A stretch of 44,157 bases of DNA, the filler included, from Jimgerdemannia flammicorona (taxonomy: Eukaryota): assembly GCA_003990765.1 (NCBI GenBank). It is 2 parts of 2 records of this genome, joined end to end, with 100 filler letters (N's around TTAATTAATTAA, not from the genome) between each part and the next. Parts side by side here need not be neighbours in the genome. Positions count along the whole stretch, not along the records: positions 22,132 to 44,157 come from RBNJ01001347.1; 1 more part is not named here. One strand, given 5' to 3'. Each line of letters starts with the position of its first letter. Within the stretch, counting starts at the first letter, position 1. Position numbers and translations under genes: made by a program. Shown piece by piece: positions 10,013 through 37,695 of the stretch. The notes below the pieces were generated by a model that ran no database searches, was not told the origin of the DNA, and worked only from the letters and a program-made list of their open reading frames with translations.

Positions 10013-10058
<46 letters not shown>

Positions 10059-10062
10059 AAAC

Positions 10063-10115
<53 letters not shown>
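10013..10115 (+). repeat. Interrupted poly(A) tract (~100 nt)
   Basis: Two long A runs separated by CCAAACC; other long homopolymers at 1-21, ~19039-19079, ~21148-21198 (T) and ~22012-22031. Confidence 0.9.
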
Positions 10116-11800: not shown

Positions 11801-12153
11801 AAAACACATTTGAACAACTCTGTTCGCTCTATCTGTGTCACCTCTATTAGAGAGTGATAGATGCTTCATCTGAACTCAAAAAAGCTGACATTGTCAAAAC
11901 CAATCTCAAGCCATCCATGTGACAGATATTACTACTAGAAATTGCCTCAGATTATAGAAAATATCATTTCTAAGAGGTTCGAACCCCCAGGTAGACTTCT
12001 TTTACTCGAACCATTTGGAGAGAGTTAAGCTACACCAACAACTTTCAGTGAAAGACAACACATTTGTAAGTTTTTATTTCGAACATACTGGTGTACATCA
12101 TGCAGTGGGAGTCTATCTATAAGGCACAGGAAAAACTGTCAAGTTTTAGCAAT

Positions 12154-14022: not shown

Positions 14023-14034
14023 ACAACTTCCTTA

Positions 14035-17000
14035 ATGATGATGAGCAATCTACATATTTTATTGATCAATGTCAATGGATTGCGAGATGGTGTCAAGAGA
14101 CGGCGGCTTTTCAGATGGCTTAAAGTCAGGAGGTATGATGTTATGTTTCTTCAGGACGTTCGGGCTTATGGTGAGTCAGACTATGAGAATTGGAGTAAAG
14201 AATGGTATGGTGGCATAGGTTGGAATATGCAGGTGGGCATCTTGATTAGTATAGGCAAAGGCAAGCTAGTGGAGGTAGAGAGCTTTGGTGACAGAATGAT
14301 TTGGAGAAGACTTAAAGGTGGGGCAGGTGATGGTTTGATGGTTGGATCAGTTTACCTCCCTGTAGTTGGTAGAGAGCAAAAGCAATGGGTTGAAGGATGG
14401 CAGGTGTGGGATGGTCAGGAGGTAGTTACTTTGGACATTTTGGGGGGGGGCTTTAATACATATGGTGTATGATCAAGCACTGGACAGATCTGATGGTGGA
14501 GCAGGAGTCATGGTATCACATGGACTTTCTCAATGGCTTCAGGTGGAGCGAGATATAAACTTGGTGGATGGTGTTCGTCAGTAGCAAGGGGATGCAGTGG
14601 GACCTTTCACCAGGTGGCACCCAGTTGGAATAACCTTGGTTGGGATGCGAATAGACTGAGTGCTAGTGGCAGAGTGCTGGGGTAATGTACTGGACACTGT
14701 TGAGGTGCACTGGTGCTCTTGGTCAGATCACTGGGGAGTAGAGGTTTGTAGGAGATTCCAAGCGGTATGCAGTGGTGGTGGATGCTGGCACCTCAATGTG
14801 GCCTTACTCAGGAGAAAGAAGGAGAGGGACAATTTTGTGATAGTTATGAAACAGGAAGTTAGGCAATGGCAGAGCGAAGGGCAGTTGATAGCAGAATGGT
14901 GGAGTAAATTCAAACACTTGGCTGGTGCTTACTGGCAAGATGCGAAGGATAAAGAAAGGAGGGTGGAGAAGGGGCTGAGATGGCGATTGAAGCTCTTGGA
15001 AATGGGGAACTTATCTGGGGAGGTGTGCCAATGTTTAGCATTAGAGGTGGCTGAGTTGTAGGTAGATTTAAAGGTGTCAGAGACCAGGGTGGTGGATGGC
15101 CTGCTGGCCAGGCTATGAGCAAGATGGTTGGAAGATGGTAAGAGGCCGACAAGATATCTGTCTGATATCTTAAAGGCCAGGAGAGTATGACATAGCTGGG
15201 CTTCAGTTTTGCATGAAGATGGAGTAGAGGTCTCTGGGATTACTGATATATTAGGGGAGAATGGCAGGCTCTTTGGCAGGATGGCGAGGATGGCGGAGAG
15301 CAGTCTGAGAGCATGGAGTTTGAGGAGGATAATGACAATATGGTGAACAGTTGGCTGGTGGTGGCAATACCTGAGATAGGGGAAGTGGTCATGAAGGAGG
15401 TATCCCTGGAGGAAGTATTGGAAGTTCTGAGGAAGATGCAGACTGGATTGTCCCCAGGGGAGGATGGGTTGCCCTGGGAATTCTGGAAGGAGTTCAAGTA
15501 CGAGTTTGGTGACTGGTTGGTGGAGATGGCTAATGCTGTTCTGAAGGAGGGCTATTGGATAGGCAATAGCTCCTTAGGGCTAGTTTCTCTTCTATATAAG
15601 GAGAAGGGGGATAGATGGGTGTGGCATAATTGGTGGCCTATCATGCTGCTGAATGTGGATAGAAAGTTGGTGTCAAAGATTCTGGCAGGAAGGATGCAGC
15701 AGTATATTGGTGCACTAGTTGGAGAGGAGCAGTGTGGCTTTATTAAGGGGAGGCAGATCAGAGATAGTACTGCCTGGGTGCAGAATGTTTTGGAGAGCTG
15801 CAGGAGCCAGCAGGTGGATGGCCAGATGGTCTTCTTGGATCAAGAAAAGGCCTATGATAGAGTGTGGTGGAGTTACCTAGCAGCTGTTTTGAGAAGGGCT
15901 GGATTTGGTATAGTGGAGGCAGGGCGTTTGATGGGCTTAGTGTGGAGATGCAGAGTAGCAGTTATGATGAATGGATGGTGTGGACCAGAGTTTGCCCTGG
16001 GGTGAGGGGTACTGCAGGGGGATCCTCTCTCCCCCCTTCTTTATGTACTTTCTCTAGAGCCTCTGTTGGCATGGCTGAAGGGGCGGCTCTTAGGACTGAA
16101 GATGGGAGATGTGGTCTGGCAGCTGGGTGCCTTTGCAGATGATATGGTGGTAGGGTTGGGTAGTCAGGAGGATGTAGAAGCCCTAGAAGAAGGGGTTGGA
16201 CAGTATGAGAGGCTGGCAGGGGCGAAATTGAATTGGGACAAGTGCGAGACAATGGAACTTGGTGCTGGCCTAGGGGGTCATAGACAATTCAGACAATTGG
16301 TAGCTACAGGGAGTACAGTGCGATATCTGGGTATCTGGTTCTTGGTATATGAGACAGTTCTGCCAAAGGAGTGGTGGTGTGGTTTAATTCAGAGGCTGGA
16401 AGGTGTGCTGACAGGTTGGTCAGAGAGAAGCTTCTCTTTGGTTGGCAGGATAGTAGTCTTGAATGTGTACTGGCTGCCCAAACTGTGGTATCTGGGCTAT
16501 TATCTGGATTTCCCAGAGTAGGTGGTGCAGTGGTTGAAGAAGATTGTTGAAGAGTGGTTATAGCAGGGGAGGCATCCACAGATTAGATGGGAGACTTTAG
16601 TAATGAGGACTTCAGATGGAGGCCTGGGGTTGGTGGATTTTAGATGCCAGCTGAAGGTGCTTCAGTGCTGGTAGGGGTGCTGAATGATGGAACTAGGTGA
16701 AGGAAGTTGGGGCAGGCTGGTCATGGATAATTGGGAGGTCCGGTTTTACCCTTGGGGTGAAGTTTGGAAGGATATGTGGGGCTTGCTTCAAGTTAGGAGT
16801 ATAGGTCGACTGCAGTTTAAGGGGTTCTGGTGGGGTATCATAGATGTCTGGCTGGCCATGGGGTTGGCAGGCCCAGCAATTGAGGAGATTGGGAACTCTG
16901 AGCAGAGGTGGTGGCAACTGGGAGATCTTCGGGTCAGTGGCCACAGTCTGAAGGAGTATTCGCTGATTGAGGCAATGGAGTGGATCAGGTCTGGCCCTCT

Positions 17001-17646
17001 GGAGATTTGGCTGCCTGGATGGCAGAGAGCTGGTATCGGAGAAGACTGGGAGTGGGCCAGAATTTGGAAATGGGGAGTCTCTGTATACAAGATGGTGCCA
17101 CCCAAATACTGGGTGGTTTGGTGGCAGTTCTTAAGGTGCAATGTGATGCTGAGCTATCGAACTGGCTGGATGGTGATGGATGGCTGTCAGGACTGTGAGT
17201 GGTGTAATGAGATAGATGGAGGAGTGGTTTAGATGCCAGAACATGTCCTGGGGGCCTGCCTGGATATGAAAGGATTTTGGCAGAGTTTGGAAGATTACTG
17301 GGGCTCTGAGAGATGTAGGGCAGAGGATCTGACCAGTCTGGTGGTCAAGTGCTGGCTGGTGGGGGAAATTGGTGATATATGGGGGGGCCTTGGTCGAGTT
17401 TTAGAGGTCTGGGTCTTGATGGTGGTACATTAGTGGTGGATTTTTGAACAAGACCCATGGATGGGAATTGGAGAGATGGTGGAGTGGTAGAAGTGGCTTC
17501 TCCAGAAGGTGGTTCAGGGTTGGTGGTATCAGGAGAAGAGACTCCAACCAGGGGCCTTAAAGAAGGTGCAGGATGTTGTGCAGAGGAGTCGAGGGTACCT
17601 GGTTTTAGATGATCGAGGGGTGCAATGGAAGGAGAGAGTTGGTTGA
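14035..17646 (+). pseudogene. LINE ORF2: APE endonuclease, reverse transcriptase and C-terminal CCHC; multiple stops and frameshifts
   Basis: INVNGL, FLQD, GSVYLP, GGFN, SDH; SPGEDGL, WWPIMLLNVDRK, QCGFIKGR, LDQEKAYDRV, QGDPLSP, FADD, YLGI; CEWC..EH...C. The LDQEKAYD motif is typical of L1/Tx1. Confidence 0.92.
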
Positions 17647-19037: not shown

Positions 19038-19081
<44 letters not shown>

Positions 19082-21145: not shown

Positions 21146-21201
<56 letters not shown>

Positions 21202-21945
21202 TTAGTTTTTTTTAAAAAAAAAAACTCATACCTTAGTTGTAATTCCAAGCTTGTGAATATAGTTTATAAACACTTCTGCAATATTTTCTCCAGAATGAGG
21301 ACTCTTAAGCTTTATGAAATCAAGAGTAAGAGTTTGAAGCTACCAATTAGAATCAATCTAATATCTCATAATATCAAGAAATGAAATGACATTGGGAGAT
21401 ATCCAGATATCAATTGTGAATGAAATTTTGCCCATAATATTCTATAGTAAAATTTAAAATATAGTCAGTAATTATAATTAATTCAATAATATTCTTCATA
21501 TTACTAATATTTTACCTGAAGCTTTTGATAAAGATTATTATATTCTTTTTTATAAGCCTTCATATTATTATTATAAATAGTATCAGTGCTTGGAGTATAT
21601 AAATCAGGCTTGATAAGACCAAAGAGACTTCATAAAGAAGGACTCTCAATTGCTGTAAATGGTTGATCATCATATATAATCTAATGAATAAGTTGATTTC
21701 AAAATTCTGAAGCAGAATATGGCTAAATTGTTTTTTTTTTTTATAAAAAAGAAAAACCTTGAATATAAAAGATACATTTTCAAATTTATATGAAAATAAA
21801 AAGAGATCATATACTTACTATAGCTGAAATATCAATTTTATTGATACTGTATTTAACTCCATTTTATCTAAATATTGGACCTTTATGTGCTTTATCATAT
21901 TTGTTGTACAACAACTGTGTGTTTTATATTTCTGTCTATATTTTA
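19609..21945 (-). pseudogene. Intron-containing hAT-superfamily transposase, decayed; 5' part cut by the contig end
   Basis: Dimerisation domain FPNLSNMAQDYLAIPATSASVEWVFS...RRCSL...MCLKSW; upstream FTIDIW, HSGENIA, ITTDNASNN, C*AHVLNL and DQPFTAIE motifs. GT-AG introns, e.g. 19786-19855, and about six more AT-rich interruptions; in-frame stops. Confidence 0.88.
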
Positions 21946-22031: not shown

Positions 22032-22131
22032 NNNNNNNNNNNNNNNNNNNNNNNNNNNNNNNNNNNNNNNNNNNNTTAATTAATTAANNNNNNNNNNNNN
22101 NNNNNNNNNNNNNNNNNNNNNNNNNNNNNNN
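22032..22131. other. Artificial contig linker (N44 + TTAATTAATTAA + N44)
   Basis: Exactly 100 nt; the 12-mer places stop codons in all six frames, a standard concatenation spacer. Confidence 0.95.
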
Positions 22132-22252
22132 CTAACCCTAACCCTAACCCTAACCCTAACCCTAACCCTAACCCTAACCCTAACCCTAACCCTAACCCTA
22201 ACCCTAACCCTAACCCTAACCTAACCCTAACCCTACCCCTAACCCTACCCCT
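22132..22252 (+). repeat. Telomere (CCCTAA)n/(TTAGGG)n at contig start, with proximal variant repeats
   Basis: About 15 perfect CCCTAA units, then CCTAA and CCCTAC variants; orientation fits a left chromosome end. Confidence 0.95.
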
Positions 22253-22473
22253 TGGCGTTAGCCACTCACGTGATTTCCCCATTTGGCTAGACTCGGCTTT
22301 ACGGCCCGAAGCTATTCCAAATTATGAAAGCAGTCCCTTTGATTAGCTAAGCCTCTCATCGGGTATAAATACCCCCCTTCCCCATTATTTTTTTGTTGCA
22401 CAAACAAAGGTCACGTGACCCGCGTTTCACAATTTCAAACAAACAAACAAACATACCTCTGCCTATTTCGGCA

Positions 22474-23973
22474 ATGTCGGCCACCTCCTCCGTCGTCGGC
22501 GATGACGGCAACGCCACCCGTCTCTTCGCGCGCTTCGGCGCCTTGCTCCACTGCGCTGAATATCGTGGCATCAGTCTTCTTTCCCTTGGCTTCGGCAAGG
22601 GTAGCCTTACGGCGATGTGCAGGTCGTGCGGGCATACACGACCAATATCGATGTATTTATCTTCTCTGCATGATGCGGAAGATGACGAGGAGATTGCGAT
22701 CTCGTCCGATTCGGACCACGACGCCCAGCGCGTCAACTATTCTCCCATGCTCCCGCCCCTCAATCGGAACAAGCGTGGTCGCCCGAACACTAGTTTGGGA
22801 ATGACCCCGACGGCCGGTCGTGCGGGCCCCTCAGCCGACCCCGATTTGGTCACGGAGATGGCCGCGATGAGGAAGCAGATCTCGGATCTGCTGACTCAGG
22901 TAGCCGAACTGGCCAAAATCAATGCCCAATTGATGGCACAGCTCGCCGAGAGGTCAGCCGCCCCAACCTCGTTGCTGTACGGTGCTCCTTCGGGAAGTAC
23001 CCCTGCCGCCCCTTCCCCAACCACCCCCCCCAAGTCCCCGGCCCCCCCTCCTACTAGTTCTGCCGCGAACACACGGTCGAAGGCCCAGAAGCGAGCGGAC
23101 AAGCGGGCCGCTAAAGCCGCCACGTCGCAGTCTGGTGCGCCGCCAAAGGAGGCAACTCCCACGGCTGTGCCTCCGGCCGCCAAAGCCGTGCCCCCTAAAA
23201 AGGGCAAGGCCAAGGCCCCCAGGCCAGTGCCCCAGGTTATGCCTGCGGGACCCAGCGCCGCCGGCCCGTCTTCGTCCCCCGCTTCGACCCCCACCCCCCC
23301 CAAATCGTACGCCGCTGCCGCCAAGAAGATTTCTATCAAAGATAGGACCCAGGTGTATCCTGAGATGGAAAGGGCTGCTGCTGCGGCTGCCCTTTCGCGC
23401 ATGACCCGCAAGCTGACCTCTCATTTGTCACCGACTGAGAAGGGCGCTAGGCTGCAGTGCGTTTACGTCGATGGATTTGCCCATCTTAAGATCGGGCAGA
23501 TCCGGAAGAACTTGTACGACGTCCATGTGATGTTGTCAAAAGTTCTCAACATGTCGTACATCTCGGTGTCGACCATCGAATTCCTCCTATGCCCTGATTA
23601 TGTCATGGCGTTCCAAAAGAAGATGAAGGTGCTGGGGATCTCGGTGCTGATGGCCTGGGACCCTGCGCTCACCCGAAACAAGAACGCCACGGAGGCCGTG
23701 AAGACACAGGTACTCCAATCCTTCCATCCTCGGGTCTGGCAGTTGGCAGGCGAAGCCACTGTGAAGAGGCCCGAGGTGCAGACCTTCTACCGAGCGTGGG
23801 CCGCGGAACTCGGCCTCACCCTCTCCTCCTCTGCCCCCCCATTGGCCGGCCCCGCTTCGAAGGCGGGTGGTTCTGTGGCCATAATGGGTGAAATGGTGAT
23901 GGATTTGGAAGCTGAAGCTTCCTCCTCAGGTACTTCCCACGCTGTTGGCGCTAACGCGCCCGGCCCACAATGA
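22474..23973 (+). CDS. Telomeric element ORF1 (499 aa, intact in copy 1)
   Basis: First ATG at 22474. N-terminal CxxC..CxxC (consensus CAEC...CRSC), heptad segment EMAAMRKQISDLLTQVAELAKINAQLMAQL, P/A/S/K-rich linker with SYAAAAK, globular C-terminal domain (VYVDGF...NMSYIS..TIEFLL). Confidence 0.85.
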   Translation: MSATSSVVGDDGNATRLFARFGALLHCAEYRGISLLSLGFGKGSLTAMCRSCGHTRPISMYLSSLHDAEDDEEIAISSDSDHDAQRVNYSPMLPPLNRNKRGRPNTSLGMTPTAGRAGPSADPDLVTEMAAMRKQISDLLTQVAELAKINAQLMAQLAERSAAPTSLLYGAPSGSTPAAPSPTTPPKSPAPPPTSSAANTRSKAQKRADKRAAKAATSQSGAPPKEATPTAVPPAAKAVPPKKGKAKAPRPVPQVMPAGPSAAGPSSSPASTPTPPKSYAAAAKKISIKDRTQVYPEMERAAAAAALSRMTRKLTSHLSPTEKGARLQCVYVDGFAHLKIGQIRKNLYDVHVMLSKVLNMSYISVSTIEFLLCPDYVMAFQKKMKVLGISVLMAWDPALTRNKNATEAVKTQVLQSFHPRVWQLAGEATVKRPEVQTFYRAWAAELGLTLSSSAPPLAGPASKAGGSVAIMGEMVMDLEAEASSSGTSHAVGANAPGPQ

Positions 23974-26900
23974 GAGTCGGGTTCCTCAATGCACACGGAC
24001 TACCCCAGGACAAGTTCGATGTGCTCAGTCGGTTGATTGGTCCTACCCTCGACGTTCTTTTCACATGTGAAACATGGCACATCCCGCTGCGTCCCTCTCC
24101 GCTCATTCACATGTCCTCTCCCCCGGTGTCGCACAGAATCGTGCGTCACCAGAATGGTGGTCTCGTGGTCCTCGTGTGAAACCGTTTTGCTCCTCTTATC
24201 TCCGGGTCCTCCGCTGACCCCTTCCATATCTGGCTCATGTTCCAGGACCTGGCTTTGGTTGGGGTTTATGCCCCCCCCTCTCTTCCCATTGGTGGTTTCC
24301 GTGATCTGGTGTCTGGACCCTTTCCGGGTAAGGCCCTTTTGATCGGTGACATCAACACCCGCTTCGGTGCCCGCCTTGGTGACGTCAACTCTGGTCCCTG
24401 TGATCGGATGGATGTCATTGACACCTCCTTGATGACGTGGTTGTTGAACCACCTGACCCCAGTGGCTGGATCCATGCGTGTTGACCACGCGTTCGCCACC
24501 ACGTCCCTCCACGCATCCCTCACATGCTCCACCCCTCCTGTCGCCACCGATCACCCCTCTCTCCTCACCGTCTCCTTTCCCTTCTCCCTCTCGCCGATCG
24601 CTGCCCTGGCTGGCGTCCGCCGTTACTCTGCGAGATACTTGACCGATCCAGTCATCCAAGCCCACCTTCGGGAATCAGCGGATATCGTTTGCGATACCGT
24701 TGTCAGGTCTATTTACTCTGTTAGAGACTATGTTACCGGCTTTCGTTCTGTGGAAGATCGCCAGCAGTTCGTGGATTCCCTTAATGCTCTTTTGACCTCT
24801 GGTCTACAGTCTGTCTGTGAGGACATTCTTGGCTCGTATGACGCAAGAGAAATCAGAGCAGCGCCACTCCCCAGGCGAGACCTTCTCCGCAGTGCATCCT
24901 CGGTCTCTGATGCCATTCGGGGTTTTAAGCGAGTGTACCGCTCCACCCCCCTTGCTCCCCTCTAGTCTCGATCCCCCAATGTCCCGGTATTCGATGATGT
25001 GGTTGCTTACTTTACCACTATCTTCAGCCAGCCGGACGCCTCCCTCCGCCTCGATGACTCTGAAGACATCTTTCCCCTTGGCGTGGGTGCCCTCAGGCTG
25101 CAGTCTTGGTTTGACCAACCTGCGGTTTGGAAGGCTATCCGCAGCTACCCCCTCTCGAAGGCATGTGGTGCCGACTCCTTGCATGTCCGGATCCTCCGGG
25201 TGATGGCAGGCGAGAAGGACGCCCCTTGTAGCCTCTCGAAAGCCCTCTCGTTCTTCTTCCAGATGTGCGTGGTCTGGGGGCTCACTCTCCGCCGCTGGAA
25301 CTCAGCCATCATCACCCCGGTTCTTAAGAAGGAGGAATCGCATACGATCGATGGGTTTCGCCCTATTGCTCTGACCGAAATATTTCGTAGACTCTTCGAG
25401 CGGTGTTTGGAAGGATACGTCAAGAGCCGAAGTGGCCTGACAGAAATGTCGCGCTGCCAAGGCAGCTTCTGAACCCGCTTCTCGTCCCTCTCTCATGTCC
25501 TGTTATCGCACGAGACGTGGGCTAAGGGATGGGGCCGCCGTGTCTTTTTGGACCTCCGGCAGGCGTACAATCGAGTCCCCCTCAAGTGCATTCTTTCCCG
25601 CCTTGAGGCGCGAGGTGCCGATGCGGCCCTCCTTAGCATTATCCGAAGCCTGTTCAACCACTGTTCTTATCAGGTGGTTGTTAATGGCCTCGTCACCCCT
25701 TCGGTCCCCACTGAGCGTGGCCTTTTTCAGGGCTCCCTCCTCTCCCCTTGGCTCTTTGATGTCTTCATTGACCCCCTCGCCACCTCTTTTGACGAACAGT
25801 TCAAAGAGTACGACTTCCCCCTCGGGCTTTTCTTCGCTGATGATATCGCCCTTACCCCCCGCACTGCCGCGGAAGGGCAAAGAATGGTTGATTTCTGTGA
25901 GGACTGGCTTCGGGTGAATGGTATGGAACTCAATCCCAAGAAGTGTGGTTATGTTGGCCCGGCCGACTGTACCGTGCTGATTGGGGGCGAGCCCTGCCCA
26001 CGGCCCACATCTTACGTGTACCTAGGCGTACCGTACACCAACAAAGTGTTTGACTTTGTCAACCTGGCGTTGCAGAATGCGGCTAAAGCGGAACGTACTC
26101 TTGGGTTCTGCCACGCCCGTGGCCCCCTCTGGTCGCCAATGGTCAAGCTGGCCATCCTACGAATATTCATCAGGCCATAGCTGGAGTATGGCCTTCCCCT
26201 TCTACGAGCCTCCTGTCCGGCTACTACCATGGGGCTTCAGGTGTTGAAGCGTCCCGAGCAGGTCTTTGATGACACTGTCACTTGGGCGGTTGGATTTTCC
26301 GGCCGTCCCTTGCTTGGTAGTTCGATTCTCGGCCTCCCTTCCTTCCTTCGTCGTACGTCTGACCTCTGCTGCATGTTCCAAGCCCATCTGGATTAGTGTA
26401 GCAAGTCAGGCAACAACCCCATCGGCCCCCTTAGTGAGCGCTTTATCATGCGTCCTCCGGGTTCTATCATTGACAAGTTCCGGCGATGGACCTCTTGGCT
26501 TGACTTCCTCAACTGGTACTGGGACCTCCGTCCCCAGGTCCGCAAGACTCGCTCGCTCCGCTCCTTCCTCCAGTCCTTTCTTCGGGATCAGTTGCTGCAG
26601 GAATGGGACTCCTCGTCCCAGGCTCTCGTTCGGTACATCACCCCCAAAGGTCGCTTGCGATCGCGGGGCGCCGACCATGTCCTTTCCTTCCCCCCCCGGC
26701 TTGTGTATTCTGCCCTCGCCTGGTGCTATAGCTTCTTTGGCCAACCCCGCCCCTGCCCCTGTGGAAATAAGTTTCATCGTGGCCATCTCCTCAGGTGCGG
26801 TCTTCTCGACGGTTCTTATTCTGCTTTCCGAGGTTCTTCAGACCGAGATGAACAGCTCGACTGGTTTACCGGTGACGAATGGCAGGAGGAACTTCGTATC

Positions 26901-27017
26901 TACCCTCTTCACGCTCTTCACGAGACAGCCTACCACGCTATCGACACCATGTGTAATTCTGGTGGCCACCTCGCGGTCGGGTTCTGCCTGACTGAGATTA
27001 CGAAGATGCTTGGGTGA
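23970..27017 (+). pseudogene. Telomeric element ORF2 (1015 codons): APE endonuclease and RT; five nonsense mutations, no frameshift
   Basis: APE motifs LNAHG, CETWH, GVYAP, GDIN, RVDH, TDH; RT motifs KACGADSL, FRPIALTE, LDLRQAY, GLFQGSLLSP, FADD, YLGV. Stops at 24177, 24963, 25470, 26178 and 26394 are sense codons in the other copies. Confidence 0.93.
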
Positions 27018-27412
27018 TCGAGCGATCGCACATTTTCTTTATTTCTTTCCTTCCCCTCATTCGCCCTGGTTGGTTCCCCCCGTTGTTGAGAGCGCATTGA
27101 ATTATTCATTTCATGCCAGTCGTTTGGTGTTTGGTTGACGATATGGCTCATGTAGTTGGCATCGGGCGAATGTGTACTATATCTTAGCCTTTCTTTTCTT
27201 TGCTTTCTGCATTTATTATCTTTACGGCCATGACTAAATGGTTTTATCCAGCCCATCCCAAGGGTGGTCACCTCTCTGGCTTTTGTTTTGTACTTCTTAG
27301 CTAGTTGTTTACTTCGCTGGCCTTGTTTTGCTTTTCTCATCTTAGGAGTCTTTGTCTTTTGTTGCTCCGATGTACCTTGTCTTCTCTAGAATGAATAAAT
27401 TCTTACTTGAAG

Positions 27413-27440
27413 CCTAACCCTAACCCTAACCCTAACCTAA
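27413..27440 (+). repeat. Interstitial telomeric tract between copies 1 and 2 (28 bp)
   Basis: CCTAACCCTAACCCTAACCCTAACCTAA. Confidence 0.95.
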
Positions 27441-30400
27441 GCCACTCATGTGATTTCCCCATTTGGCTAGACTCGGCTTTACGGCCCGAAGCTATTCCAA
27501 ATTAAGAAAGCAGTCACTTTGATTAGCTAAGCCTCTCATCGGGTATAAATACCCCCCTTTCCTATTATTTTTCGTTGCACAAACAAAGGTCACGTGACCC
27601 GCGTTTCACAATTTCAAACAAACAAACAAACACACCTCCGCCTATTTCGGCAATGTTGGCCACCTCCTCCATCGTCGGTGATGACGGCAACGCCACCTGT
27701 CTCTTCACGTGCTTTGGCGCCTCGCTCCGCTGTGCTGAATGTCACGGCATCGGTCTCCTTTCTCTTGGCTTCGGCGAGGGTAGCCTTACGGCGATGTGCA
27801 GGTCATATGGGGATGCACGACCGATATCGGCGTATTTATCTTCCCTGCGTAATGTGGAAGATGACGAGGAGATTGCGATCTCGTCCGATTCGGACTACAA
27901 CGCCCAGCGCATCAACTATTCTCCCACGCCCCCGCCCCTCAATCGGAACAAGCGTAGTCGCCCGAATACTAGTTTGGGAATGACCCCGACGGCCGGTCGT
28001 GCAGGCCCCTCAGCCGAGCCCAATTTGGTCACGGAGATGACTGTGATGAGGAAGCAGATTTCGGATCTGCTGACTCAGGTAGCCGAACTGGCCAAAATTA
28101 ACGCCCAATTGATGGCGCAGCTTGCCGAGAGGTCAGCCGCCCCAACTTCGTTGCTGTACGGTGCTCCTTCGGGAAGTACCCCTGCCGCCCCTTCCACAAC
28201 CGCCCCCCCCAAGTCCCAGGCCCCCCCTCCTACTGGTCCTGCCGCGAATACGTGGTCGAAGGCCCAGAAGCGAGCAGATAAGCGGGCCGCTAAAGCCGCG
28301 CCCCCTAAAAAGGGCAAGGCCAAGGCCCCCGGACCAGTGCCCCAGGTTACGCCTGCGGGACCCAGCGCCGCTGGCCCATCTTCGTCCCCCGCTTCGACCC
28401 CCACCCCCCCCAAATCGTACGCTGCGACCGCCAAGAAGGTTTCTATCAAAGATAGGACCCAGGCATACCCCGAGACGGAAAGGGCTGCTGCTGTGGCCGC
28501 CCTTTCGCGCATGACCCGCAAGCCGACCTCTCATTTGTCGCCGACTGAGAAGGGCGCTAGGCTGCAGCACGTTTACGTTGATGGATTTGCCCATCTTAAG
28601 ATTGGGCAGATCCAGAAGAACCTGTACGACGTCCATGTAATGCTGTCAAAGGTTCTCAATATGTCATACGTCTCGGCGTCGACCATCGAATTCCTTCTCT
28701 GCCCTGATTATGTCACGGCGTTCCAAAAGAAGATGAAGGCACTTGGGTTCTCAGTCCTTGCGGCCTGGGACCCTGCGCTCCCCCAAACAAGAACGCCACA
28801 GAGGCCGTGAAGACACGAGTACTCCAATCCTTTTACGCTTGGGTCCGGCAGTTGTCAGGCGAAGCCACTGCGAAGAGGCCTGAGGTACAGACCTTCTACC
28901 GAGCTTGGGCCGCGGAACTTGGCCTTACTCTCCCCTCCCTCACCCCCCCAATGGCCGGCCCTGCATCAAAGGCAGGTGGTACTGTTGCCGTGACAGGTGA
29001 GATGGCGATGGATTTGGAAGCCGAAGCTTCCTCCTCTGGTGCTTCCCATGCTGTTGGTGCTAACGCGCCCAGCCCACAATGAGAGTCGGGTTCCTCAATG
29101 CACACGGACTGCCCCAGGACAAGTTTGATGTGCTCAGTCGGCTAATTGGTCCTGCCCTCGACATTCTTTTCGTATGTGAAATGTGGCACATCCCGCTACG
29201 TCCCTCTCCACTCATTCACATGTCCTCCCCTCCGGTGTCGCACAGGATCGTGGGTCACCAGAACGGTGGTCTCGTGGTTCTTGTGTCAAACCATTTCGCC
29301 CCCCTCATTTCCGGGTCCTCCGCCGACCCCTTCCATATCTGGCTCATGTTCCAGGGCCTGGCTTTGGTTGGGGTTTATGCCCCCCCCTCCCTTCCCATTG
29401 TTGGTTTCCGTGATCTGGTGTCTGGACCCTTCCCGGGTAAGGCCCTTTTGATCGGTGACATCAACACCCGCTTCGGTGCCCGCCTTAGTGACGTCAACTC
29501 TGGTCCTCGTGACTGGATGGATGTCGTCGACACCTCCTTGATGACGTGGTCGTTGAACCACCTGACCCCGGTGGCTAGATCCACGTGCGTTGACCACGCG
29601 TTCACCACCGCGTCCCTCCACGCGTCCCTCACATGCTCCACCCCTCCTGTCACTACCGACCACCCCTCCCTCCTCACCGTCTCCTTCCCCTTCTCCCCCT
29701 CGCCGATCGCTGCCCTGGCTGGCGTCCGCCATTACTCTGCGAGATACCTGACTGACCCGGTCATCCAAGCTCACCTTCGGGAATCAGCGGATATCGTTTG
29801 CGATACCGTTGTCAGGTCTATTTACTCTGTTAGGGACCACGTCGCTGGCTTTCGTTCTGTGGAAGATCGCCAGCAGTTCTTGGATTCCCTTGATGCTCTT
29901 TTGACCTCTGGTCTGCAGTCTGTCTGTGAGGAAATTCTTGGCTCGTATGACGCAAGAGAAATCAGAGCAGCGCTGCTCCCCAGGCAAGACCTTCTCCGCA
30001 GTGCATCCTCGGTCTCTGATGCCATTCGTGGTTTTAAGCAAGCGTACCGCTCCACCCCCCTTGCTCCCCTCCAGTCCCGATCTCCCAATGTCCCGGTGTT
30101 CGATGATGTGGTTGCTCATTTCACCACTATCTTCGGCCAGCCGGACGCCTCCCTCTGCCTCGACGACTCTGAAGACGTCTTTCCCCTTGGCGTGGATGCT
30201 CTCGGGCTGCAGTCTTGATTTGACCAACCTGTAGTTTGGAAGGCTATCCACAGCTACCCCCTCTGAAGGCGTGTGGTGCCGAATCCTTGCATGTCCAGAT
30301 CCTTTGGGTGATGGCAGGTGAGAAGAACGCCCCCTGTAGCCTCTCGAAAGCCCTCTCATTCTTCTTCCAGATGTGCATGGTCTGGGGGCTCACTCCCCGC

Positions 30401-32519
30401 CGCTGGAACTCAGCCATCATCACCCCGGTCCCTAAGAAGGAGGAATCGCGTACGATCGATGGGTTTCGCCCTATTGCTCTGACCGAAATATTTCATAGAC
30501 TCTTCGAGCGGTGTTTGGAAGGATACATCAAGAGCCAAAGTGGCCTGACAGAAATGTCGCGCTGCCAAGGCAGCTTCCGAACCCGCTTCTCTTCCCTCTC
30601 TTATGTCCTGTTATCGCACGAGACGTGGGCTAAGGGATGGGGCCGCCATGTCTTTTTGGACCTCCGGCAGGCATACGACCGAGTCCCCCTCAAGTGTATT
30701 CTTTCCCGCCTTAAGGCGCGAGGTGCCGATGTGGCCCTCCTTAGCATTATCCGAAGCCTGTTCAACCGCTGTTCTTATCAGGTGGTTGTTAATGGCCTCG
30801 CCACCCCTTTGATCCCCACTGAGCGTGGCCTTTTCCAGGGCTCCCTCCTCTCCCCTTGGCTCTTTGATGTCTTCATTGACCCCCTCGCCGCCTCCTTTGA
30901 CGAACAGTTCAAGGAGTACGACTTCCCCCTCGGGCTTTTCTTCGCTGATGATATCGCCCTTACCCCCCGCACTGCCGCGGAAGGGCAAAGGATGGTTGAT
31001 TTCTGTGAGGACTGGCTTCGGGTGAATGGTATGGAACTCAATCCCAAGAAGTGTGGTTATGTTGGCCCGGCCGACTATACTGTGCTGATTGGGGGTGAGC
31101 CCTGCCTACGGCCCACCTCTTACGTATACCTAGGCGTTCCGTACACCAACAAAGGGTTTGACTTTGTCGACCTGGCGTTGCTGAATGCGGCTAAAGCGGA
31201 ATGTACTCTTGGGTTCTGCCGTGCCTGTGGTCCCCTCTGGTCGCCAATGGTCAAGCTGGCCATCCTACGAACATTCATCAGGCCTCAGCTGGAGTATGGC
31301 CTTCCCCTTCTACGAGCTTCCTGTCCGGCTACTACCACGGGGCTTCAGGTGTTGAAGCGTCCTGAGCAGATCTTTGATGATGCTGTCGCTTGGGTGGTTG
31401 GATTTTCTGGCCGTCCCTTGCTTGGCAGTTCGATTCTCGGCCTCCCCACCTTCCTTCGTCGTACGTCTGACCTCTGCTGCATGTTCCAAGCCCATCTGGA
31501 TTGGTGTAGCAAGTCGGGCAACAACCCCATCGGCCCCCTTAGCGAGCGCTTTGTCACACGTCCTCCGGGTTCTATCATTGACAAGTTCCGGCGTTGGACC
31601 TCTTGGCTTGACTTCCTCGACTGGTACTGGGACCTTGTCCCCAAGTGCGCAAGACTCGCTCGCTCCACTCCTTCCTCCAGTCCTTCCTTCGAGACCAGTT
31701 GCTGCAGGAATGGGCCTCCTCCTCTCAGGCCCTCATTCGGTATATTACCCCCAAAGGCCGTTTGCGGTCAAGGGGCGCTGATCGTGTCCTCTCCTTCCCC
31801 CCCCGGCTTGTGCGCTCTGCCCTTGCCTGGCGTTATGGCTACTTTGGCCAACTCCGCCCTGCCTCTGTGGAGATAAGTTTCATTGTGGCCATCTCCTCAG
31901 GTGCGGTCTTCTCGACAGTTCGTATTCTGCCTTCCAAGGTTCTTCAGATCGAGATGAACAGCTCGACTGGTTTACCAGTGACGAATGGCAGGAAGAACTT
32001 CACGCCTACCCTCTTCACGCTCTTCACGAGACAGCCTACCATGCCATAGATGCCATGTGTAATTCTGGTGGCCACCTCGCAGTCGGATTTTGTCTGACCG
32101 AGATTACGAAGATGCTTGGGTGATCGAGCGATCGCACATTTTCTTTACCTCCTTCTTTCCCCTCATTTGCCCTGATTGGTTTCCCCCCGTTGTTCAGAAT
32201 ACATTGAGTTATTCATCTCATATCAGTCATTTGGTGTTTGGTTGATGATATGGTTCATGTAGTAGGTGCCGGGCGAATGTGTATTATACCTTAGCCTTCC
32301 TTTTCTTTGCTTTTTACATTTATTATCCCTACGGCCGTGACAAAATGGTTTTATCCAGCCTGTCTATAGAGTGGTCACCTCTCTGGCCTTTGTTTTGTAC
32401 TTCTTAGCTAGTTGTTTACTTCGCTGGCCTTGTTTTGCTTCTCTCATCTTAGGAGTCTTTGTCTTTTGTTGCTCTGATGTATCTTATCTTCTCTACAATG
32501 AATAAATTCTTACTTGAAG
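27441..32519 (+). mobile_element. Telomere-embedded retrotransposon, copy 2 (5079 bp)
   Basis: Same termini as copy 1. ORF1 (27654-29082) has a 69-bp deletion and a frameshift near 28783; ORF2 (29079-~32123) has a stop at 30216 and frameshifts near 30255, 31637 and 31862. Confidence 0.95.
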
Positions 32520-32534
32520 CCTAACCCTAACCCT
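32520..32534 (+). repeat. Interstitial telomeric tract between copies 2 and 3 (15 bp)
   Basis: CCTAACCCTAACCCT. Confidence 0.9.
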
Positions 32535-32535
32535 G

Positions 32536-35500
32536 GCCACTCACGTGATTTCCCCATTTGGCTAGACTCGGCTTTACGGCCCGAGGCTATTCCAAATTAA
32601 GAAAGCAGTCACTTTCATTAGCTAAGCCTCTCATCGGGTATAAATACCCCCTTCCCCATAATTTTTTCGTTGCACAAACAACAGTCACATGACCCGTATT
32701 TTACAATTTCACAAACACAAACAAATACACCTTCGCCTATTTTGGCAATGTCGGCCACCTCCTCCGTTGTCGGTGATGACAGCAACACCACCCGCCTCTT
32801 TGCGTACTTCGGTGCCTCTCTCCGCTGCGCTGAATGTCGCGACATCGGTCTCCTCTCCCTCGGCTTCGGCGAGGGTAGCCTTATGGCAATGTGCAGGTTG
32901 TGCGGGGATGCACGACCGATATCATCATATTTATCTTCCCTGCGTGATGCGGAAGATGACGAAGAGATTGCGATCTCTTCTGATTCAGACCACGACACCC
33001 AGTGACCCCCCTACTCTCCCACGCCCCTGCCCCTCAATCGGAATAAGCATGGTCACCCGAACACTAGTTTGGGAATGACCCCGACTGCCGGTCATGCAGG
33101 CCCCTCAGCCGACCCCGATCTGGTCACGGAGATGGCCACGATGAGGAAGCAGATCTCGGATCTACTGACTCAGGTGGCCGAACTGGCCAAGATCAATGCC
33201 CAGCTGATGGCGCAGCTTACTGCGCGTCATGCGCCCACCACCCCCTCGACATCTGGTGCTCCTTCGGGAAGTACCCCCGCCACCCCTTCCACATCTGCCC
33301 CCCCCAAGTCCTCGGCCCCCTCTCCTACTGGTCCTGCCATGAACACATGGTCAAAGGCCCAGAAATGAGTGGACAAGTGGGCCGCTAAAGCCGCCACATC
33401 ACAGTCTGGTGCGCCGCCAAAGGAGATAACTCCCATTGCTGTGCCTCTAGCCGCTAAAGCCATGCCCTCTAAAAAGGGCAAGGCCAAGGCTTCCAGGCCA
33501 GTGCCCCAGGTCACGCCTGTGGGACCCAGCATCGCCGATCCGTCTTCATCCCCCGCTTCGACCCCCGCCCCCCCCAAATCGTACGCCGCCACTGCCAAGA
33601 AGATTTCTATCAAGGATAGGACCCAGGCCTACCCCGAGATGGAAAGGGCAGCTGCTGCTGCTGCCCTTTCGCACATGACCCACAAGCCGACCTCTCATTT
33701 GTTGCCGACTGAGAAGGGTGCTAGGCTGCAGCGCGTCTACATTGACGGATTTGCCCATCTGAAGATCGGACAGATTCGGAAGAACTTGTATGACATCCAT
33801 GTGATGTTGTCAAAAGTTCTCAACATGTTGTATGTCTCAGCATTGACCATCGAATTCCTTCTCTGCCCCGATTATGTCACGGCATTCCAAAAGAAGATAG
33901 AGGCGCTTGGGTTCTCGGTGCTGACAGCCTGGGACCCCGTACTCCCATGCAATAAGAACGCCATGGAGGCCGTGAAGACACAGGTCCTCCAATCATTCCA
34001 TGCTCGGGTCTGGCAGTTGGCTGGCGAAGCCACTGCGAAGAGGCCCGAGGTGCAGACCTTCTACTGAGCTTGGGCCACGGAACTCAGCCTCACTCTCTCT
34101 TCCTTTGCCTCTCTGTTGGCCGGCCCTGCTTCGAAGGCAGGTGGTACTGTGGCCGTGACGGGTGACATGGTGATGGATTTGGAAGCTGAAGCTTCCGCCT
34201 CAGGTGCTTCCCATGCTGTTGGTGCTAACGCGCCCGGCCCACAATGAGAGTCGGGTTCCTCAATGCACATAGACTATCCCAGGACAAGTTCGATGTGCTC
34301 AGTCAGTTGATTGGTCCTGCTCTCGACGTTCTTTTTATATGTGAAACATGGCACATTCTGCTGCGTCCCTCTCCGCTCATTCACATGTCCTCCCCTCCAG
34401 CGTCGCACAGGATCGTGAGTCACCAGAATGGTGGTCTCGTGATCCTTGTGTCTAACCATTTTGCCTCTCTTATTTCTGGGTCCTCTGCCCACCCCTTCCA
34501 TATCCGGCTCATATTCCAGGGCCTGGCTTTGGTTGGGGTTTACACTCCCCCCTCTCTTCCCATTGGTGGCTTCTGTGATCTGGTGTCTGGACCCTTTCTG
34601 GGTAAGGCCCTTTTGATCGGTGACATCAATACCCATTTTGATGCCTGCCTTGGTGATGTCAACTCTGGTCCTCGCGATCGGATGGATGTTGTCAACACCT
34701 CCCTGATGACGTGGTCATTGAACCACCTGACCCCGGTGGCTGGATCTACATGCATTGATCATGCGTTCGCCACCGCATCCCTCCATGTGTCCCTCACCTG
34801 CTCCACCCCTCCTGTCGCCACCGACCACCCCTCCCTCCTCACCATCTCCTTCCCCTTCTCCCCCTCGCCGGTTGCTGCCTTGGCTGGCGTCCGTCGTTAC
34901 TCTGCGAGATACCTGACTGACCCGGTTGTTCAAGCTCACCTTTGGGAATCAGCGGATATCATTTGTGATACCGTTATCAGGTCTATCTACTCTGTTAGGG
35001 ATCACATCGCTGGCTTTCACTCTGTGGATGATCGCCAGCAGTTTGTGAATTCCCTTGATACTCTTTTGACCTCTGGTCTGCAGTCTGTCTGTGAGGACAT
35101 TCTTGGCTCGTATGACGCAAGAGAAATCAGAGCAGCGCCACTCCCTAGGTATGACCTCCTTCACAGTGCATCCTTGTTCTCTGATGCCATCTATGGTTTT
35201 AAGCGAGCGTACCGCTCCACCCCCTCTGCACCCCTTCAGTCTCGCTCCCTTAATGTCCTGGTGTTCGATGATGTAGTTACTCACTTCACTACTATCTTCG
35301 GCCAGCCGAATGCCTCCCTCCGCCTTGATGACTCTGAAGATGTCTTTTCCCTCAGCGTGGGCGCTCTTGGGCTGTAGTCTTGGTTTGACCAACCTGCGGT
35401 TTGGAGGGCTATTCGCAGCTACCCCCTATCAAAGGCATGTGGTGCCGACTCCTTGCATGTCCGGATCCTTCGGGTGATGGCAGGTGAGAAGGATGCCCCC

Positions 35501-37681
35501 TGTAGCCTTTTGAAGGCCCTCTCATTCTTCTTCCAGATGTGCGTGGTTTGGGGGCTCACTCCCCACTGCTGGAACTCAGCCATCATCACCCCGGTCTCGA
35601 AGAAGGAGGAATCGCGAATGATTGATAGATTTCGCCCTATTACTCTGACTGAAATGTTTCGTAGACTCTTCAAGCAGTATTTGGAAGGATACGTCAAGAG
35701 CCGAAGCGGTCTGACAGAAATGTCATGCTGCCAAGGCAGCTTCCGAACCCGCTTCTCATCCCTTTCTCATGTCTTGCTTTTGCACGAGACATGGGCTAAG
35801 GGATGGGGCCGCCGTGTCTTTTTGGACCTCCGGTAGGCATATGATCGAGTCCCCCTCAAGTGCATTCTTTCTTGCCTTGAGGCGCGAGGTACTGATGCGG
35901 CCCTCCTTAGCATTATCCGAAGCCTGTTTAATCACTATTCTTACCAGGTGGTTGTTAACAGCCTCGTCACCCCTTCGGTCCCCACTGAGTGTGGCCTCTT
36001 CCAGGGCTCCCTCCTCTCCCCTTGGCTCTTTGATGTCTTTATCGACCCCTTCACCGCCTCCTTTGATGAACGGTTCAAGGAGTACAACTTCCCCCTCAGG
36101 CTCTTCTTCGCTGATGATATTGCCCTTACCCCCCGCACTGCCGCGGAAGGGCAAAGGATGGTTGACTTTTGTGAGGATTGGCTTTGGGTGAACGGTATGG
36201 AGCTCAATCTCAAGAAGTGTGGTTATGTCGGCCCGGCTGACTCTACTGTGCTGATTGGGGGCAAACCCTGCCTGCGACCTACCTCCTATGTATACCTGGG
36301 CGTGCCATACACCAATAAAGAGTTTGACTTTGCCAACCTTGCGTTGTAGAATGTGGCGAAGGTGGAATGGACCCTTGGGTTCTGCCATGCCCGTAGTCCT
36401 CTCTGGTTGCTAATGGTCAAGTTGGCCATCGTACGAACATTCATTAGGCCTCAGCTGGAGTATGGCCTCCCCCTCCTATGAGCTTCCTGTCCGGCTACTA
36501 CCACGGGGCTTCAGGTGTTAAAGCGTCCCAAGCAGGTCTTTGATAACGCTGTCGCTTGGGCAGTTGGATTTTCTGGCTGTCCTTGCTCGGCAGTTCGATT
36601 CTCAGCCTCCCTTCCTTCCTTTGTCACATGTCTGACCTCTGCTGCATGTTCCAAGCCCATCTGGATTGGTGTAGCAAGTCGGGCAACAACCCTATCGGCC
36701 CCCTTAGCAAGCGCTTTGTCACGTGTCCTCCAGGTTCTATCATTGACAAGTTCCGGCATTGGACCTCCTGGCTTGACTTCCTCGACTGGTACTGGGACCT
36801 CCGTCCCCAGGTCCGCAAGACTTGCTCACTCCACTCCTTCCTCCAGTCCTTCCTCCGGGATCAGCTGCTGCAGGAATGGGCCTCTTCCTCCCAGGCTCTC
36901 ATTCAGTATATTACCCCCAAAGGCCGTTTACGGTCGTGGAGCGCCGATCACGTCCTTTCCTTCCCCCCCCGGCTTGTGCGTTCTGCCCTCGCCTGGCGCT
37001 ATGGCTACTTTGGCCAACCCCACCCCTGCCCCTGTGGAGATAAGTTTCATCGTGGCCATCTCCTCAGGTGCGGTCTTCTCGATGGTTCGTATTCTGCTTT
37101 CCGAGGTTCTTCAGATCGAGATGAACAGCTCGACTGGTTTACCAGTGACAAATGGCAGGAAGAACTTCGTGCCTATCCTCTTCACGCTCTTCACGAGATA
37201 GTCTACCATGCTATAGATGCTATGTGTAATTCTGGTGGCCACCTCACGGTCGGGTTCTGCCTGACCGAGATTATGAAGATGCTTGCGTGATCGAGCGATC
37301 ACACATTTTCTTTACCTCCTTCTTTCCCCTCATTTGCCTCGGTTGGTTCCCCCGTTGTTGAGAGTACATTGAGTTATTCATCTCATTTCAGTTGTTTGGT
37401 ATTTAGTTGTCGATACAGTTCATGTAGTAGGCGCCGGGCGAATGTGTATTATATCTTAGCCTTTCTTTTCCTTGCTTTTGCATTTATTATCTCTACGGCC
37501 ATGACAAAATGATTTTATCCAGCCCGCCCATAGGGTGGTCACCTCTCTGGCCTTTGTTTGTACTTCTTAGCTAGTTGTTTACTTTGCTGGCCTTGTTTTG
37601 CTTCTCTCATCTTAGGAGTCTTGTCTTTTGTTACTCCGATGTATCTTGTCTTCTCTACAATGAATAAACTCTTACTTGAAG
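32536..37681 (+). mobile_element. Telomere-embedded retrotransposon, copy 3 (proximal, 5146 bp)
   Basis: Same termini. ORF1 stops at 33003, 33366 and 34065; ORF2 (34244-37290) stops at 35375, 35834, 36347 and ~36479, with a frameshift near 36578. Confidence 0.95.
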
Positions 37682-37695
37682 CCTAACCCTAACCC
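37682..37695 (+). repeat. Innermost telomeric tract (14 bp)
   Basis: CCTAACCCTAACCC directly after the copy 3 end, then AT-rich DNA. Confidence 0.9.

Follow-up and report, generated by a model that had tools for sequence, protein, structure and literature searches.

A window of 44,157 nucleotides from the genome of Jimgerdemannia flammicorona (GCA_003990765.1) was analysed; the window is this whole stretch of DNA, which is made up of two contigs, A and B. Contig B (RBNJ01001347.1, positions 22,132 to 44,157) carries three copies of a retrotransposon of the non-LTR type (LTR, long terminal repeat) embedded in telomeric repeats. Very probably, this is a chromosome end with three successive, now dead, insertions of a site-specific element that targets TTAGGG/CCCTAA. 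The element possesses two ORFs (open reading frames), and its ORF2 encodes an apurinic/apyrimidinic endonuclease (APE) and a reverse transcriptase (RT). Together with its relatives, it represents a deep, telomere-repeat-specific lineage of two-ORF long interspersed nuclear elements (LINEs) of the APE type, and this lineage is distinct from the fungal elements of the CRE type.

The two contigs are joined through N runs (22032-22075 and 22088-22131) that flank a TTAATTAATTAA spacer. Because of this junction, the tract that starts at 22132 is terminal to contig B, and the array from 22132 onward has no physical linkage to anything left of it. The tract has a period of 6 and 20.3 copies at 22132-22252 (TRF), and CCCTAACCCTAA occurs 15 times in the window vs 0 times in 100 shuffles. 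C-rich repeats that run 5' to 3' at the left end of a contig have the orientation expected of a chromosome end. The sequence-only reading that preceded this analysis had described a terminal (CCCTAA)n tract followed by three full-length, ~5.1-kb head-to-tail elements between telomeric tracts of 28, 15 and 14 nt, their 5' ends facing the chromosome tip and the array coexisting with telomerase-type repeats. The coordinates (Table 1) and TRF agree with this description, all three copies are on the + strand, and the terminal (CCCTAA)n tract is present.

The copies, designated c1, c2 and c3, share 91.8% (c1-c2), 88.0% (c1-c3) and 88.2% (c2-c3) identity, and the innermost copy, c3, is the most diverged of the three. 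They start with identical first bases, and their 5' ends are exact. The filler at the 5' junction consists of 8 bases in c1, none in c2 and one G in c3. The three insertions are taken to be independent because the 5' fillers and the spacer lengths differ among the copies. An element of ~5.15 kb contains a 213-nt 5' untranslated region (UTR), ORF1, ORF2, and a 395-nt 3' UTR. Two CACGTG palindromes and a TATAAATA box are kept at the same places of the 5' UTR in c1, c2, and c3, and these motifs are candidate internal-promoter elements. At the other end, all three copies finish with AATAAA-N13 and are followed directly by CCTAACCC. No poly(A) or A-tract is present between the element end and CCTAACCC in any of the three copies. 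The missing 3' tail does not exclude membership among the LINEs, because site-specific LINEs often do without one.

Table 1. Coordinates of the telomeric tracts, element copies and annotated parts of copy 1 in the window.
Feature	Position	Strand	Remarks
Terminal telomere tract (CCCTAA)n	22132..22252	+	~20 units, last ~30 nt degenerate; opens contig
Non-telomeric filler, 5' junction of copy 1	22253..22260	+	8 nt
Copy 1 (c1), full length	22261..27412	+	5152 bp
5' UTR of copy 1	22261-22473	+	CACGTG at 22267 and 22412; TATAAATA at 22364
ORF1 of copy 1	22474..23973	+	intact, 499 aa
ORF2 of copy 1	23970..27017	+	1015 codons, single frame, 5 in-frame stops
APE-type endonuclease domain, copy 1	23970..24600	+	motifs LNAHGL, CETW, VYAPP, GDINT, VDH, TDH
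Reverse transcriptase domain, copy 1	25335..26030	+	Pfam RVT_1; FADD at 25833
C-terminal Cys/His (CCHC-type) motif of ORF2, copy 1	26754..26798	+	
3' UTR of copy 1	27018..27412	+	AATAAA at 27394-27399, 13 nt before junction
Interstitial telomeric tract, copy 1/copy 2	27413..27440	+	28 nt, begins CCTAACCC
Copy 2 (c2)	27441..32519	+	5079 bp
Interstitial telomeric tract, copy 2/copy 3	32520..32535	+	15 nt (32520-34) and one extra G
Copy 3 (c3), most diverged	32536..37681	+	5146 bp
Innermost telomeric tract	37682..37695	+	14 nt; AT-rich non-telomeric DNA next

Each copy has decayed in its own way. ORF1 is free of lesions in c1, has a 69-bp deletion and a 1-bp deletion in c2, and contains three stops in c3. 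ORF2 has five stops in c1, three 1-bp deletions and one stop in c2, and one 1-bp deletion and four stops in c3. In c2, the ORF2 ATG is at 29079 and the endonuclease (EN) region (29079-29798) is intact. When ORF1 and ORF2 of c1, c2, and c3 were compared, no lesion was found to be common to two copies, just as had been read from the sequence alone, and a three-copy consensus would therefore be open. Transitions make up 179 of the 205 private substitutions in c1, 181 of 198 in c2, and 339 of 391 in c3. The fraction of sites mutated was 283/715 for CpG, 101/627 for CpA, 90/913 for CpC, and 39/630 for CpT. This spectrum carries the signature of methyl-cytosine deamination and not that of CpA-type repeat-induced point mutation (RIP); we infer methylation as the cause. 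Neurospora-type RIP was ruled out as the cause of decay, given a CpG rate of 0.40 vs 0.16 for CpA and no TCG preference.

The ORF2 ATG overlaps the ORF1 TGA as ATGA (23970-23973) in all three copies. The same overlap was found in seven of 12 relative loci (metagenomic, with L numbers) that were examined, namely L002, L005, L007, L009, L014, L015, and L016. The boundary reads TAATG in L001 and L024, and in L003, L004, and L018 the ORF2 ATG lies 4-10 nt before the ORF1 stop. The arrangement of the two frames points to translation of ORF2 by termination-reinitiation. In SART1, the stop/start overlap reportedly serves ORF2 translation, and termination-reinitiation is said to have been shown there. 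The ATGA overlap is kept among relatives with only ~20-30% ORF1 identity.

The sequence-only reading had assigned ORF2 to an APE endonuclease plus RT, and profile, fold and motif matches agree on this. The window ORF2 carries all of the APE catalytic motifs (N, E, Y, D-N, D-H, D-H), and N7, E34, Y100, D127, N129, H173, and H195 are invariant in a 20-sequence EN profile. RVT_1 was identified in the window ORF2 at E 2.5e-22 (Pfam). Across 11 family members, Pfam found RVT_1 in 11/11 and Exo_endo_phos in 4/11, and no RNase H was found in any of them. Full-length ORF2 relatives share 29-34% identity at up to 96% query coverage (word-seeded protein search). A search of the Protein Data Bank (PDB) sequences with the single window ORF2 protein gave no match. 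The 11-sequence ORF2 profile can be aligned colinearly to human L1 ORF2p over the stretch between EN residue 7 and RT residue 778 (E 1.3e-41), and the ORF2 family profile also matches R2 RT structures. With an EN-only profile, L1 EN was the first match among the PDB sequences at E 2.8e-11, followed by ExoIII and APE1, and none of the 50 PDB sequences that were listed up to an E of 10 is a TRAS1 or R1Bm EN entry. An AlphaFold (AF2) model of the window EN reached a predicted local distance difference test (pLDDT) value of 86.8. Foldseek placed L1 EN best against this model (E 3.5e-10), with TRAS1 EN (1wdu) at rank 14 (E 8.4e-9) and APE1 after it. Judged by sequence, the EN is nearer the L1 type than the R1 type (TRAS).

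ORF1 is less easily recognised. A word-based homology search with it returned nothing at E<=0.001, and the 13 ORF1 sequences (the window and 12 relatives) matched no Pfam family, zf-CCHC and Transposase_22 included. The ORFs directly upstream of ORF2 in the 12 metagenome loci are homologous to it (phmmer E 4.6e-28 to 4.6e-9). The predicted structure has a beta-rich, zinc-ribbon-like N-terminal module at residues 9-69. A CxxC...CxxC motif is present in the ORF1 head of relatives; one CxxC is mutated in c1 and present in c2 and c3. Residues 123-161 are modelled as a long helix (pLDDT ~95), read as a coiled coil, and a disordered linker rich in Pro/Ala/Ser/Lys comes after it. A beta-alpha-beta-beta-alpha-beta domain follows at ~325-399, with helices to 445. 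VIA-align pairs this domain with many RNA recognition motifs (RRMs), the best at a middling Z of 8.0 with a root-mean-square deviation of 3.9 over 79 residues, and Foldseek of the ORF1 model gave nothing at E<=0.001. In the model, the C-terminal domain thus appears RRM-like, and the predicted layout of coiled coil and RRM-like domain resembles that of L1-type ORF1p. ORF1 proteins of the R1/Jockey type have C-terminal CCHC zinc knuckles; in contrast to this feature of the R1 clade, no such knuckles were found in the 13 ORF1 sequences.

The association with telomeres was explored in metagenome contigs, which were scanned with the family alignment. This gave 80 loci, oriented with ORF2 on the + strand. 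The ORF2 end of each locus was placed by the family hidden Markov model (HMM), and telomere 8-mers were sought in the next 800 nt. Thirty loci were scored in which the C-terminus of ORF2 is complete and followed by 100 nt or more; they are 25-34% identical to the window element, and those with an HMM score of at least 450 (n=22) were considered close relatives. C-strand telomere repeats are present 3' of the element in 14 of the 30 loci, including 12 of the 22 close relatives, and G-strand telomere 8-mers within 800 nt 3' of the ORF2 stop in 0 of the 30. The background in the other 271,926 nt of all loci was 20 C-strand and 11 G-strand sites, with ~25 of each expected by chance. Telomere targeting had been proposed as a family trait from the window, and these counts, which are independent of the window, support it: the association with telomeres belongs to the family and is not a chance property of one locus. 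It appears that the whole family is specialised for insertion into telomeres.

The downstream tracts of the relatives are 9-29 nt long and mostly lie 20-320 nt past the stop (~720-740 nt in L029 and L042). The junction at which the last element base, X, is followed directly by CCTAACCC can be read in phase only where that base is not C. It is present in the window (three times), L003 (twice), the upstream unit of L004, L016, L017, L023, L029, L042 (twice), and L010, and AATAAA is found 1-13 nt upstream of the junction in most lineages. In L003, a 5'-truncated unit of ~30 nt lies between two telomere tracts. L042 contains an array in which a 5'-truncated unit begins right after an 11-nt telomere tract. 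These truncations and the variable 5' fillers of the window are marks of TPRT (target-primed reverse transcription). L005 (4480-4720) and L016 (6940-7170), which are different family members from two metagenomes, adjoin the same 29-30-bp subtelomeric satellite embedding CCCTAACCCT, as well as the same flank. Evidently, the two loci share one type of subtelomere, that of a single host species. In a FastTree phylogeny of the RT core (70 sequences, 291 columns, rooted on the other LINE of the window and read without support values), telomere-associated loci turn up at various places among the close relatives. There are exceptions: the telomere tract of L018 is degenerate only, and a terminal (TTAGGG)n stands 1.3 kb away from the distant relative L025, which is oppositely oriented. 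Side features of two loci may also be listed. In L017 (5745-5850), the 29-nt telomere tract is followed by two more CTAACCCTAA motifs, possibly the 5' UTR of a next unit. In L016 (1200-1420), just upstream of the element 5' end, a stretch resembles, on inspection by eye, the 5' portion of a large-subunit rRNA of eukaryotes, and it may be either a remnant of subtelomeric rDNA or a chimeric junction at the 5' end.

An insertion mechanism can be proposed for the element. A bicistronic RNA would be made, and ORF2 would be reached by termination-reinitiation at the AUGA overlap. Since AAUAAA stands 1-13 nt before the element end, the RNA 3' end would form inside the flanking repeat and include a few CCCUAA units, and an end of this type can pair with the primer. 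The ORF2 protein would nick the G-rich strand to give a primer ending in ...TTAGG-3', which would pair with an RNA end of the CCUAA type. The nick is placed at TTAGG^G in this proposal because the junction of X and CCTAACCC is invariant. Reverse transcription would then begin at the last element nucleotide, and the cDNA would grow toward the tip. This would fix the observed orientation, in which the 5' end faces the tip and the sense strand runs on into the C-strand. Telomere repeats would stay distal to the new copy or be re-added by telomerase, and such a terminal tract is observed in the window. Repeated events would give the head-to-tail arrays with telomeric spacers of 9-29 nt that are seen in the window and in relatives. 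Finally, inserted copies would decay by CpG-biased transitions; the spectrum is observed, and methylation would be its source.

Several results weigh against this reading. Pfam Exo_endo_phos misses the window's own ORF2 copy even at E<=10. No telomere repeat follows ORF2 in 16 of the 30 relatives, and three of the 14 positives are less clear, since the repeats of L008 and L013 are all variant ones and L010 has a single 9-mer. L006, L011, and L022 form an AT-rich sublineage that ends in A-rich tails, and the 3' end of L004 adjoins non-telomeric, unrelated DNA. In five lineages (L002, L005, L009, L014, and L019), the element ends in a run of C, which leaves the phase open to more than one reading. 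The putative nick position comes from the junctions, and the genomic evidence from the source genome is one array. Furthermore, the downstream tracts are uniformly short (9-29 nt), which a random nick in a telomere of ~120 nt does not predict. End-priming, with critically short telomeres as the primer, or a tail templated by the element would account for short tracts no less well. Other candidate causes are that only 2-3 proximal repeats are needed or that the tracts shrank after insertion. Two to three repeats are recognised by SART1 and TRAS1, according to PMC7265360.

End-priming is the alternative that survives best. Here, no endonuclease is used; the 3' G-overhang of a short or uncapped telomere would pair with the CCCUAA-ended RNA and prime the RT, and telomerase would re-cap the end, by analogy with HeT-A/TART and also with L1 at dysfunctional telomeres. 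It is considered unlikely, yet it has to be taken seriously, because all of the ~17 measured element-proximal tracts are 9-29 nt vs 121 nt for the terminal tract. The 5' junction of copy 1, where irregular repeats precede regular ones as in de novo telomere addition, and the element orientation are also as end-priming would have them. However, the invariance of the EN catalytic residues in 20 diverged members argues for use of the nuclease. The phase of the junction is always ...TTAGG-3', a constancy that is not required of natural overhang ends. In SART1 and TRAS1, the analogues that have been studied best, insertion takes place inside the repeats and not at ends (PMC7265360).

It is also conceivable, if improbable, that one insertion was multiplied through unequal recombination or segmental duplication. 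Recombination generally occurs readily among the tandem repeats of chromosome ends, and the three units are full length with the same 3' junction phase. Amplified units would not be expected to have different spacers (28, 15, and 14 nt) and a 5' filler of their own (8 nt, none, and one G). Shared lesions between units were looked for and none were found, and in the arrays of relatives the point of 5' truncation differs from unit to unit, as separate TPRT events would leave it. A carried or templated tail of the element is a very improbable source of the CCTAACCC run. In that case, insertion would not be telomere-specific and the terminal position would be coincidental. The tails are short, those of one sublineage are of similar length (11 nt each in L042, 9 nt each in L003 and L004), and several tails directly precede non-telomeric DNA. 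On the other hand, the 121-nt terminal telomere tract precedes copy 1 in the same orientation, L005 and L016 lie at the border of a subtelomeric satellite, the usual arrangement is a head-to-tail array, and an L004 3' end without a tail indicates that the tail is not obligate. A collapsed or chimeric contig that joins a telomere read to a dispersed repeat can hardly be credited, error-prone as repeats at contig ends are, since the units differ by 8-12%, with unit-specific lesions and junctions that speak against collapse or assembler duplication, and the same architecture is present in independent metagenome contigs.

Serial insertion of a telomere-targeting LINE can be compared with known systems. 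Telomere-associated retrotransposons catalogued in 2023 comprise SART/TRAS, GilM/GilT, Zepp1, MoTeR1, Tx1-1_ACar, and Athena (PMC10088271). Among the systems close to the window family are TRAS1 and SART1 (R1 clade, Bombyx mori and other insects), which are likewise two-ORF APE LINEs in fixed orientation in telomerase-type repeats. The TRAS sense strand is continuous with the C-strand, as in the window family, and TRAS1 has an EN fold in common with the window EN. TRAS/SART target TTAGG, whereas the window family targets TTAGGG. The TRAS1 EN nicks TT^AGG (PMC7265360), while the primer end proposed for the window family is TTAGG^. A poly(A) is found in TRAS/SART, and SART1 requires a long one; the window element has none.

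The sequence-only reading had known APE-type telomere targeting from insect TRAS/SART. This proved incomplete, as Tx1-1_ACar (a telomere-specific Tx1 of the green anole) and Zepp (L1-like, Chlorella) are also APE-type elements of the L1 group associated with telomeric repeats (PMC10088271). One belongs to a vertebrate and the other to a green alga, and they are likened to the window family by description only. The EN similarity and the ORF1 layout of coiled coil and RRM-like domain point toward the L1/Tx1 group, although Pfam Transposase_22 is unmatched.

MoTeR, FoTeR, and Cnl1 belong to the CRE clade, with a single ORF and a restriction-like PD-(D/E)XK endonuclease C-terminal to the RT (PMC12857005). 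Cnl1-like elements of Malassezia are also single-ORF fungal telomeric elements (PMC10055393). In the published descriptions, the four resemble the window family in being telomere-embedded, head-to-tail and in fixed orientation, with short interstitial tracts and coexisting telomerase repeats. In contrast to the one ORF and the restriction-like endonuclease after the RT in CRE elements, there are two ORFs in the window family, and its APE nuclease precedes the RT; no scan was aimed at RHD...E...R/KPD. A distinction from the fungal CRE-type MoTeR/Cnl1 had been drawn from the window alone, and it stands on two ORFs and an N-terminal APE vs a restriction-like endonuclease (PMC12857005).

The Penelope-like Coprina/Athena differ in having an RT of the Penelope-like and telomerase-RT (PLE/TERT) type and either no nuclease or GIY-YIG, whereas the window ORF2 is colinear with L1 ORF2p, APE included. 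HeT-A/TART/TAHRE (Jockey clade, Drosophila) likewise form head-to-tail terminal arrays with the 3' end toward the centromere. However, Drosophila is without telomerase repeats and these are end additions, while the window units have TTAGGG-type spacers and a telomerase-type cap.

The family reaches well beyond the window. Among 1.84 billion representatives of 50%-identity clusters, the EN profile matched 17,275 proteins at E<=0.001; of these, 1,821 remained at a cut-off of 1e-10 and 297 at one of 1e-30, and these numbers indicate that the family is diverse. Most of the top matches are ~1000 aa long. Among 20 proteins that were looked up, the sole named homologue is from the fungus Calcarisporiella thermophila (34% identity by BLASTP, 35% in the alignment). 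Full-text literature searches, with Repbase, Dfam, and subscription journals outside their scope, found no two-ORF APE-type element on TTAGGG repeats from fungi. The window family is provisionally regarded as undescribed.

Other features are present in the window. Contig A possesses a second, unrelated APE and RT LINE (12070-17232) with an extreme excess of G over C on its coding strand (GC skew 0.40-0.50) and long open frames, including an ORF of 650 aa. The RT identity between this LINE and the telomeric element is only 25%. A decayed relative of the second LINE (50% aa identity) lies at 38000-44157 in contig B, directly proximal to the telomeric array. Contig A also contains the homopolymers A103 (10013-10115), A41 (19039-19079), and T66 (21148-21213), which lie in AT-rich stretches (22-35% GC) between tandem repeats of 18-40 bp. 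The only recognisable host gene in the window is a fragment at 414-1338 on the - strand (Pfam Ferritin-like, E 4.3e-6), apparently split by a short intron. A search with its ORF (622-1338), set to longer lengths, gave no match, and protein-cluster searches returned no usable match for this ORF and generic RT clusters alone for ORF2 of the telomeric element. Rfam gave no match over the whole window.

Telomere-specific retrotransposons are the main natural link of mobile elements to the maintenance of chromosome ends. To our knowledge, the telomeric elements of the APE type have so far comprised TRAS/SART of insects, a single Tx1 family from a lizard, and Zepp, and the fungal telomeric examples so far are all of the CRE type. 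A bolder proposal, which as a whole is unlikely and is put forward as a speculation, is that the window family is part of an old, widespread APE LINE clade of fungi and other microbial eukaryotes, specialised for TTAGGG, with a CCCUAA-ended RNA primed in a telomerase-like way by the G-strand 3' end. It would constitute a second system that heals or extends ends beside telomerase, undescribed and independent of the insect R1 and fungal CRE elements. A third deep lineage, if true, would show the repeated evolution of telomere targeting. Its traits would be a different nuclease ancestry, a defined TTAGGG junction phase, the absence of poly(A), and an ORF2 with conserved coupling through AUGA. Environmental eukaryotes have intact copies. 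The family would thus supply a natural TTAGGG-specific nuclease and RT for mechanistic work, and it would give a marker of unstable chromosome ends in host genomes.

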